From: Candidatus Tenderia sp.
Lineage (GTDB): Bacteria > Pseudomonadota > Gammaproteobacteria > Tenderiales > Tenderiaceae
Direction of reading: 5' to 3'
DNA length: 31,036 bases
Assembly: GCA_031416075.1 (NCBI GenBank)
Contig: JANOSY010000042.1
Span: 1 to 31,036, forward strand
Part shown: positions 1 to 11,796 of the stretch, piece after piece
Layout: the number at the start of each line of letters is the position of its first letter
How positions within the stretch are numbered: the first letter of the stretch is position 1
Made by a program: the position numbers and the translations under genes
The notes under the pieces: generated by a model
The model's database searches: none
Seen by the model: the letters and a program-made list of their open reading frames with translations, nothing else
What the model was told of the DNA's origin: nothing

Positions 1-126
1 GTCTCTTCGCTACGTCCTGCTTTCAGTCTGGCCTCGCGGCTTCCACCTTGGATTTCGCTACACTTCTCGTCACTCTTCGTGGCAGTTTCCTTTCAAACTA
101 CGAGTACATGCCCATGCTGGGCACAC
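1..126 (-). mobile_element. 5' end (domain I) of a group II intron, most likely class IIC, truncated by the window edge
   Basis: The minus strand from 126 reads GTGTGCCCAGCATGGGCATG...TAGCGAAATCCAAGGTGGAAGCCGCGAGGCCAGACTGAAAGCAGGA. This has the GUGYG 5' boundary followed by the CCCRGCAUGGG stem typical of IIC introns. It starts 3 nt downstream of a hairpin, as IIC introns do. The RT ORF and domains V/VI lie outside the window. Confidence 0.8.
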
Positions 127-307
127 TAGGTCCGATTAGCGGAGCGTAATCGGACGCATGTAAACGCAGCAAACAGGCTCGTTTGAATCACCCCGCTGAC
201 AACCTGCTCTCATACCCCATGCGAGGCATAAAAACCAAAAAATGGCCACTCAGCCAATTTTCAGGCAACCTTCATGCGTCCGATTACGCTCCGCTAATCG
301 GACCTAC
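127..307. repeat. Inverted pair of GTAG-family REP-like palindromes (REPIN/BIME-like doublet)
   Basis: 127-160 (taggtccgattagcggagcgtaatcggacgcatg) is the exact reverse complement of 273-306. Each copy holds the hairpin gtccgatta...taatcggac. The right copy has an intact GTAG foot (minus strand, 307-304); the left copy lacks the G where the intron begins. Confidence 0.85.
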
Positions 308-825
308 GAGCTAATTTGGTTTCGTCTTTCATCATCAAGCTTACATAATTTATTGTGCGTAAAATTAGGCTTTAATACTAATTCATGTTCATTTTCATTT
401 TCATTCCCTTCGAACAACACCTGTGAATCATCAATCTCCATAAGAAATACTGGCCTAGATTCAAGTTTGGTCTCGGATATGCTAGATGAATAGCAATAAG
501 CCTTCAGTCCTTCAATTTTTTTTGCCCACGAGCATCCTAAATTTCCTTCAGACTCACCATCTCTACCTATTCTATATAAGGTCAAGACTCGATTTGTTGG
601 CCTGTAGCTTTGTCGGAATTTCGACAGATCAAAGCGAAAACAAGCATAGTTTCCTGAAATTATACTTGAGGTATATAGCTCTTTCAGTGTATCTATTTTC
701 CCTTTGCCGTCCATGAGATCGATTATCTGTATCTTATGGCCATTAAGAAAAAATAGTAATACCTCCAATTGATCACCATGTTCACTGGTGTAAAAAGATT
801 CTTCTAAATCTTGTTTAGATGTCAA
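304..825 (-). CDS. AT-rich hypothetical protein with a putative ADP-ribosyltransferase-like (R-S-ExE) signature; true start uncertain
   Basis: 173-aa ORF from TTG 825, but the frame stays open up to 921. Motifs TLYRIGR, GCSWA and ENEHELVL. Base composition is visibly more AT-rich than the flanking genes. Confidence 0.6.
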   Translation of the reverse strand: MTSKQDLEESFYTSEHGDQLEVLLFFLNGHKIQIIDLMDGKGKIDTLKELYTSSIISGNYACFRFDLSKFRQSYRPTNRVLTLYRIGRDGESEGNLGCSWAKKIEGLKAYCYSSSISETKLESRPVFLMEIDDSQVLFEGNENENEHELVLKPNFTHNKLCKLDDERRNQISS

Positions 826-11407: not shown

Positions 11408-11446
11408 AAAAAGGGCGACAGGTCAGCCGTCGCTGACCTGTCGCCC
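11408..11446 (-). terminator. Intrinsic terminator, the expression platform of the glycine riboswitch
   Basis: Perfect 15-bp stem gggcgacaggtcagc / gctgacctgtcgccc with a 4-nt loop, followed by a U-tract on the minus strand. It abuts the 3' strand of P1 in aptamer 2. Confidence 0.88.
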
Positions 11447-11636
11447 CTCTGTCCGGGTACCTGAGAGTTTAAGCCTTTGATTAGACTCACCCCTTCGGTG
11501 GAACTCTCTGTCTAAAACAGAGGCTCGCTCTCCAGAGTCAACCACCGTCTGCGGTCCTGAGGCCTGAGCGATTCCGGGCGGGTTGCGCCTTCGGCGGTTC
11601 CGACCCTGTTGGATCCGAACACTCTCCCCCAGACGG
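11447..11636 (-). promoter_or_regulatory. Tandem glycine riboswitch (two aptamers)
   Basis: Aptamer 1 (11636-11545): GGAGAG...CCGAAGGCGCAA...CGCTCAGG, closed by ccgtctg/cagacgg. Aptamer 2 (11538-11447): CTCTGGAGAG...CACCGAAGGGG...AACTCTCAGGT...GGACAGAG. Located upstream of gcvT. Confidence 0.95.
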
Positions 11637-11796
11637 GTTAGGTTGAGCCACGAACTATACCTATAACCCTTGCCAAAACCAAGAGAGGTACCACCACAAA
11701 AAAACTACTGTGATAAAAACGTGACTCTTTTGTAAGGATTTATCACAACAACCCGACAATAATAGTACCTACCCACCCACATCACTGGAGCCTGTT

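Follow-up and report, generated by a model that had tools for sequence, protein, structure and literature searches.

The left edge of the window (the whole stretch of DNA analyzed here, C42:1-31036, which is the start of contig C42 in a genome of 95 contigs and 3.49 Mb, G000) most probably carries the 5' end of a class C (IIC) group II intron. The intron appears to have entered by the usual IIC route, between the CTA and the C at the end of a REP, and the REP belongs to a family associated with RAYT genes. As a rough figure, a probability of 0.8 can be put on this reading.

It is clear where the intron begins. Read on the minus strand, the sequence is ...CATGC GTCCGATTA CGCTCCGC TAATCGGAC CTA/GTGTGCCCAGCATGGGCATG..., with the slash (here and below) marking the junction between REP and intron. 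Positions 160 to 127 are the REP with the end ...TAATCGGACCTA, and positions 126 to 1 open with GTGTGCCCAGCATGGG. The first G of the intron is window position 126, and from there the intron runs to position 1, the contig start. By sequence comparison this stretch (1-126, minus strand) is the first 126 nt of group II intron domain I, with 5' GUGUG at 126-122. A sister REP at 273-307 (plus strand) is uninterrupted and reads CATGC GTCCGATTACGCTCCGCTAATCGGAC CTAC. Since the sister ends in CTAC, the intron separates CTA from C or, on the opposite strand, the G of GTAG from its TAG. The preliminary description had put a IIC intron at this point in the REP, and the observation of an intron 5' end in the head of a REP is confirmed, with a first intron base that is one position to the right of what the coordinates of that description might imply.

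The immediate surroundings are simple. The intron-split REP occupies 127-164 (minus strand) and consists of CATGC, a 9-bp stem (GTCCGATTA with TAATCGGAC, 130-155), an 8-nt loop and CTA, its terminal C having been pushed beyond the intron. These limits come from alignment and fold, and metagenome contigs give the same ones. The last four bases of the 5' exon, CCTA (127-130, minus strand), are the putative IBS1, judging from the EBS1 loops of relatives as paired by eye. The REP stem ends with the first C of this tetranucleotide, and the CTA that follows is complementary to the TAG in the GTAG head. A 108-nt spacer (165-272) separates the two inverted REPs, which together form a REP doublet, and the intact sister (273-307, plus strand) with its CTAC end and its own fold is an unoccupied target site. 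Upstream of the intron and co-oriented with it is an ORF of 173 aa (304-825, minus strand), a putative gene from a mechanical ORF call that has no Pfam family. The TAG stop of this ORF at window 304-306 is the TAG of the GTAG head of the intact REP.

What identifies the 126-nt fragment as a group II intron? An Rfam search of window positions 1-400 gave no match at E<=10. The fragment covers only about 40 nt of RF02001, and it receives no score because only 126 nt are present and the contig stops about 40 nt into the first model. The identification comes from homology to complete introns and from covariation. In a gap-free alignment, 90 of the 126 nt are identical to the Rfam-confirmed intron of a metagenome contig, L020. 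The fragment also aligns with intron 5' ends that have Rfam matches downstream, namely those of C82 and C64 in the same genome and that of a Clostridium MAG. Across an alignment of nine intron 5' ends, the fragment included, 16 of the 23 predicted pairs show compensatory changes. GTGTG at window 126-122 agrees with the group II 5' GUGYG. The placement of the window copy is that of class C, with the hairpin stopping 3 nt ahead of the insertion site. Because this copy is 126 nt long in a genome with no RVT_1 match, its class, completeness and activity are read from relatives that are 71-79% identical.

The intron 5' end is present at exactly two places in the genome, C42:1-126 and C41:4558-4683. 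Both read ...TAATCGGACCTA/GTGTG at the same REP position, and so the expectation that all genomic copies follow this REP held for two of two. Each insertion lies at the outer edge of an inverted REP doublet whose two halves are about 110 nt apart, and each intron has the orientation of the upstream ORF. On the plus strand the GC skew is negative in C42 (-0.084; intron on the minus strand) and positive in C41 (+0.081; intron on the plus strand). The intron sense strand is therefore the G-rich strand in both contigs, an observation that agrees weakly with insertion into the template of the lagging strand.

Could these two junctions have come from one duplicated segment, or from a mis-assembly, instead of two insertions? 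The last 141 nt of C41 and C42, including all 126 intron nt, are identical and stop at the same base, which fits such an origin. However, the identity ends 15 nt upstream of the junction, at a C/A difference within the REP loop, and the spacers, the partner REPs and the upstream genes are unrelated. Unrelated flanks argue for two insertions and against one duplicated segment. The overlap of 141 nt is also the one at other contig joins of this assembly (C82/C75 and C82/C39), so it would seem to be the assembly k-mer, not biology, with contigs ending where a repeat begins. In addition, L020 has the same junction in a different assembly, with an intron that is 71% identical. A duplicated or mis-assembled segment is thus highly improbable, and two separate insertions are the preferred reading of the two junctions.

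The rest of the intron is missing. Neither the intron body nor the 3' end of the lineage was found in the G000 assembly, where only the 5' ends in C41 and C42 are present. An RVT_1 search of the genome gave nothing, and the RT of L020 (P0001) used as a query at 1e-60 gave 0 matches. The genome has a single D5/D6, located at the tail of C82, which equals the head of C75. It was considered as the 3' junction of the window intron and rejected, as it belongs to another ORF-less IIC intron with a 5' exon ending in ACGT and a 3' exon starting with T. Among the Logan contigs of the sequencing runs, none has at least 31 letters on each side of the junction, hence there is no bridge across it, and none shows an empty site. 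A contig of run X1 agrees with the window at positions 141 to 9, and beyond that point its letters are different and colinear with the L020 intron (30 letters shown). Judging from these letters, it would be a second intron variant in the sampled community.

One possibility is that the copy in the window is a remnant, dead or non-autonomous (just a 5' fragment, or an ORF-less derivative), and that the insertion is a fossil. In keeping with this are the failure to find an RT gene or the 3' end of the lineage in the assembly, the ORF-less state of all four copies in genome G130 (656-697 nt; see below) and the presence of another ORF-less IIC intron in C82. On the other hand, the body might be a collapsed repeat of <2 kb that was filtered out, given that the smallest contig of the assembly has 2061 nt and that both contigs end in a common 141-mer. 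The two copies are also identical over 126 nt, which suggests recent spread. A remnant comes close to an even chance without quite reaching it. It is compatible with the best explanation of how the copy arrived, that is, insertion of a IIC intron into a REP by the usual route.

The contig ends of this assembly deserve a comment. Dozens of them fall into a few shared-end groups of up to nine contigs each, a sign that several IS families of high copy number have fragmented the assembly. One of these IS ends, C82:1-139, interrupts a transposase-like ORF of C82. For annotation, it is useful that contig breaks beside REPs in G000 are partly caused by the introns described here.

Scanning metagenome contigs for the REP-intron junction yielded a complete relative. 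Contig L020 has the same REP and the same junction, followed by an intron at 157-2025 (1869 nt). Its ribozyme matches RF02001 with 95.5 bits and RF01998 with 45 bits, and D5/D6 was not reported by RF00029 at E<=1. Its 3' end, which terminates in ...CCCGAU, forms D5 and a D6 in which a GA is left unpaired. The 3' exon begins with C, which restores CTAC. The encoded RT has 416 aa, with RVT_1 and GIIM as its only Pfam domains and 377.6 bits to TIGR04416. Against solved structures the best match is the GsI-IIC RT (381 bits), followed by 7uim (293 bits) and 5hhl/5hhj (about 250 bits), with the IIB structure 6me0 (118 bits) and the IIA protein LtrA (112 bits) far behind. In a search of 400 genomes of the class, 15 genomes matched the L020 RT, all at 39-53% identity and with no close relative among them. 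The best match in a search of plasmids was 45.5%.

L020 also contains the N-terminus of a RAYT, 32 nt after the intron (E 6e-12). Is this the RAYT that belongs to the REP? Over 51 aa it is nearer to the C55-type RAYT of G000 (59%) than to the other type (39%), and the C55-type RAYT has its own REP, GTAGGGTGGGC..., which differs from the intron-bearing one. The L020 REP is moreover oriented the other way round from the REP in the REP-RAYT units of G000. For these two reasons the pair in L020 is not claimed as cognate.

The next members of the lineage were found in genome G130. It has four ORF-less copies of 656-697 nt that are 76-78% identical to the L020 ribozyme, and all have the junctions CCTA/...GAT/C. 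As in L020, a D5/D6 fold is formed at the 3' end, with ...CCCGAU as the last bases. Two of the four are in a duplicated segment, which leaves three independent sites. The site in G130:C3 belongs to a REP-like family, GCGGCT.AAGCCGC-TCCTAC, of which there are four copies at 0-1 mismatch, an inverted doublet among them. The sites in G130:C4 and G130:C12/C20 are unique hairpins, followed by TTCCTA/C and CCTA/C. For one of these hairpins there are 0 further copies at <=3 mismatches, and for the other there is a single 3-mismatch match.

With the introns of L020 and G130 in hand, several predictions of the preliminary description can be judged, although only in relatives, because the intron body is missing in G000. 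An RT/maturase of class C was predicted, and the RT of L020 has the GsI-IIC RT as its best match. A D5/D6 ending in AY was predicted as well, and the introns of L020 and G130 end in ...GAU. Finally, a 3' exon starting with C is present at four of four independent sites in L020 and G130.

How widespread is the lineage? The pattern of CCTA plus intron start occurs in two of 401 genomes of the class (G000 and G130), in one of 41 relatives of G130 (G130 itself) and in one of 401 genomes of the phylum (G000 only). A DNA search with the 126 nt gave matches in 0 of 60 relatives. Scanning genome contigs with the first 22 nt retrieved only the intron of a Clostridium MAG, which shares the first 25 nt, and scanning metagenomes with intron nt 26-47 retrieved none. 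In four sister genomes and G059 the junction pattern has 1-mismatch matches only, at control level. By these sequence matches the lineage is known from three places: G000 with two copies, L020 with a full-length intron that includes the RT, and G130 with ORF-less copies.

The relatives provide a clue to how the target is read. At RF02001 positions 94-101 the L020 intron has a loop, GCUGGGAA, in which UGGG pairs with CCUA (one pair being G·U). The corresponding loop in G130 is GCUAGGGA, where UAGGG pairs with (U/C)CCUA. These pairings were read by eye from Rfam alignments and not computed. An EBS1 loop complementary to (C)CUA, that is UAG(G), had been foreseen, and the relatives bear this out with UGGG and UAGGG. 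The same loop complements the last 4-5 bases of the 5' exon in six of seven other class C introns that were compared: AACA with UGUU in G157 (a genome flagged as unpublished), CAGA with UCUG or UUUG in G165, ACGUG with UACGU in G003, GCGUG with CACGU in G407, ACGU with GCGU in G219 and GUCGG with CUGAC in G164. The seventh, the G106 intron, lacks an EBS1 match in this loop. The EBS3 position was not located in the intron alignments compared. A candidate for it, the variable base in GA-N-GAACA, was dropped for want of covariation with the 3' exons (T, C, T, T in G165). Altogether the target of the lineage looks like a DNA hairpin that is followed within 3-6 nt by CCUA/C, with C as the first 3'-exon base at every readable site.

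It had also been claimed that the repeat hit by the intron is RAYT-associated, and this proved correct. One expectation was a RAYT gene flanked by the same REP. NF047646 (NCBIfam REP_Tyr_transpos) scores above its cut-off at C36:30-470, with the REP at 523-548, and again at C89:49659-50099, with the REP at 50189. RAYT genes with this REP on both sides are found in G001:C266 and G002:C292. Furthermore, RAYT remnants lie next to the REP in C15 and C24, and the one at C15:504-614 is between inverted REPs. Folded as single-stranded DNA, the REP forms a stem of 9 bp that closes an 8-nt loop, and four copies gave z values of -2.5 to -4.0. The family is present in all four genomes of the genus with 1-17 copies each, and in two of 56 other genomes searched, G005 (once, with one mismatch) and G059 (five times). 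G000 has 15 copies, a low number for a REP. Their tails are CTAC in ten of 15, CTA/GTGTG with the intron in two, and the variants ATAC, CTGC and TTAC in the remaining three. On this sequence evidence, the repeat that bears the intron is a genuine RAYT-type REP.

Two further observations concern REPs in this genome. At C41:4420-4528, the spacer of the C41 REP doublet, a stretch resembles by eye the 3' end of a RAYT gene of the C36/C89 type, and this doublet may be a decayed RAYT locus. Besides the intron-bearing family, G000 has at least five more recurring hairpin types with a GTAGG head, for example GGTGGGC..GCCCACC (which flanks the C55 RAYT, C55:50900-51850), CGTGGGCAC..GTGCCCAC, GGTGCGC..GCGCAC, GGTGCATGGAATGCAC and GGTGCGAATAAATTCGCAC. 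None of those listed contains the intron.

Is the lineage specialized for REPs, as the preliminary description proposed? One way to approach this is a census of potential targets in G000, defined as CCTAC sites with a perfect stem 3-6 nt ahead, the families being read from the printed list. There are 153 sites with a stem of >=5 bp, 73 with >=6 bp and 45 with >=7 bp, of which the intron-bearing REP family contributes 13, 13 and 12, respectively. The 45 strong sites are made up of 12 in this family, 20 in five other recurring GTAGG-headed types and 13 singletons. In other words, GTAGG-headed REPs of about six hairpin types provide 32 of the 45 strong combinations of hairpin and CCTAC (about 70%). 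Given this share, a plain rule of hairpin plus CCUA/C already predicts that both insertions would be in REPs, and the data reveal no recognition specific to this family or to REPs as such.

What if the lineage is nevertheless dedicated to REPs? In this hypothetical scenario the intron or its RT recognizes the REP structure, EBS1 and EBS3 have evolved to suit GTAG(G), and the non-REP sites in G130 are off-target. Four of six independent sites of the lineage are indeed in REPs or REP-like elements of two unrelated families (the two in G000, L020 and G130:C3), and CCUA/C is the exact complement of GTAGG. However, L020 was recovered with a pattern that contains the REP, which makes it a biased sample for REP preference, and the fraction is three of five without it. 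The two sites outside REPs are both in G130, where two of three independent sites are unique hairpins, and the two of two in G000 would be expected without any REP-specific recognition given the 32 of 45 strong sites. A dedicated lineage of this kind is therefore unlikely. The copies of G130, in one REP-like element and two unique hairpins, make the determinant look like a hairpin with CCUA/C. The claim of specialization stands in part: both G000 copies, L020 and G130:C3 are in REPs, but the two unique hairpins of G130 are not. What is supported is that the lineage favors REP sites and does not use them exclusively.

A less strict version is that the exon-binding sites of this IIC lineage are tuned to GTAGG, a head common to many unrelated REP families. 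Such a lineage could move between REP families and genera (the GTCCGATTA REP of G000 and the GCGGCT.AAGCCGC REP of G130), splitting G from TAG and taking REPs out of the reach of RAYTs. If true, it would be a retroelement that parasitizes the repeat system of a domesticated transposase. This is put forward tentatively, as a doubtful possibility.

The reading preferred here is more modest. An ordinary IIC mechanism, which uses a hairpin and a short IBS1, would be at work with a target motif that coincides with the REP head, and REPs would be its main but not its sole landing sites. With a conserved GTAGG head beside a stable stem, each REP is a ready-made target. The intron RNP would recognize the hairpin extruded in single-stranded DNA and pair its EBS1 with CCUA, and comparison supports both the hairpin and the pairing. 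Reverse splicing would take place ahead of the C, with the biochemistry presumably that of known IIC introns. By the same analogy, reverse splicing would enter hairpin DNA at replication forks, and the intron would be transcribed through read-through from the upstream gene. The insertion would split the GTAG motif that the RAYT needs, and the REP would thereby be disabled, as the split GTAG suggests.

How does this compare with known systems? The terminator-type IIC introns include B.h.I1 of Bacillus halodurans and GsI-IIC of Geobacillus stearothermophilus. The lineage shares with them a compact ribozyme, an RT without an endonuclease domain (in L020, nearest to the GsI-IIC RT), a site a few bases after a DNA hairpin, an EBS1-IBS1 pairing of 4-5 bp, and an intergenic position co-oriented with the upstream gene. 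Relatives at the level of the class, the four copies in G165 and those in G157 and G106, are located after T-rich terminators. In contrast, the hairpin of this lineage has no T-run and in G000 is a RAYT-associated REP, CCUA is the IBS1 and the 3' exon opens with C in every case (together the complement of GTAGG), and the L020 RT is only 39-53% identical to all class C relatives found. Insertion of IIC introns into hairpin DNA and the biology of the terminator type are outlined in the introduction of PMC12584367.

A second parallel is provided by the IIC-attC introns of integron cassettes (abstract of PMC7923331). In both cases a IIC sub-lineage is tied to one kind of recombination hairpin, which is present in many copies and is acted on by a DNA recombinase in its own right. 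The difference is in the target, which here is not attC but a REP next to RAYT genes, and exclusivity is not claimed.

Insertion sequences also make use of REPs, and IS621 is one of those that target them. Others, including ISPpu9/10, ISPa11 and ISPsy8, appear in PMC1525189. For such elements, as for the intron, REPs are safe intergenic places to land that are available in many copies. The insertion sequences, however, work with DNA transposases or recombinases, whereas the intron is an RNA-guided retroelement that reads a 4-nt motif and a hairpin. A precedent is a group II intron of P. putida KT2440, which a table lists as REP-associated in two of nine copies (Tobes and Pareja 2006, PMC1525189). 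This too is a group II intron in or next to gammaproteobacterial REPs, and the REP-like target in G130 ends in GCTCCTAC. The table entry gives no junction, class or mechanism. Beyond it, the main texts of openly searchable papers did not describe any homing of IIC introns to REPs.

For a class C intron, nothing in the mechanism itself is unusual. IIC introns read DNA hairpins, namely those of terminators and attC sites. The GTAGG head and stem of REPs would, if shown, be a third and very abundant class of IIC landing sites. This would link two mobile systems, a retroelement and the RAYT/REP system, and it would explain how introns find harmless intergenic sites in REP-rich genomes with a simple target rule, a hairpin plus CCUA/C.

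A few other elements were noticed along the way. Within the window, 11439-11639 (minus strand) holds tandem glycine riboswitch aptamers (RF00504, 60.7 and 43.3 bits). The ORF-less IIC intron of C82 (C82:2279-3062, L005) has 783 nt and matches RF02001, RF01998 and RF00029. It follows a hairpin and ...CTCCACGT, and its EBS1 loop has a 31-nt insertion. Its neighbors are a tyrosine-recombinase ORF and a split ORF that by eye resembles an IS91-type (Y2) transposase. G003 and G407 have full-length or related copies of this intron with the same 5' exon, GGTTAGCTCYACGT. The 5' part of yet another IIC intron is at C64:9406-10038 (L008 2407-3039); it is 76% identical to that of C82 and runs into the contig end. 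The intron bodies of G000 are largely unassembled. Finally, in L021 (G164:C21; 3382-3458 and 3381 downwards) a class C intron starts right after the D6 end of another group II intron, in a tandem or nested arrangement, and its EBS1 loop matches the last bases, CUGAC, of the group II intron that precedes it.
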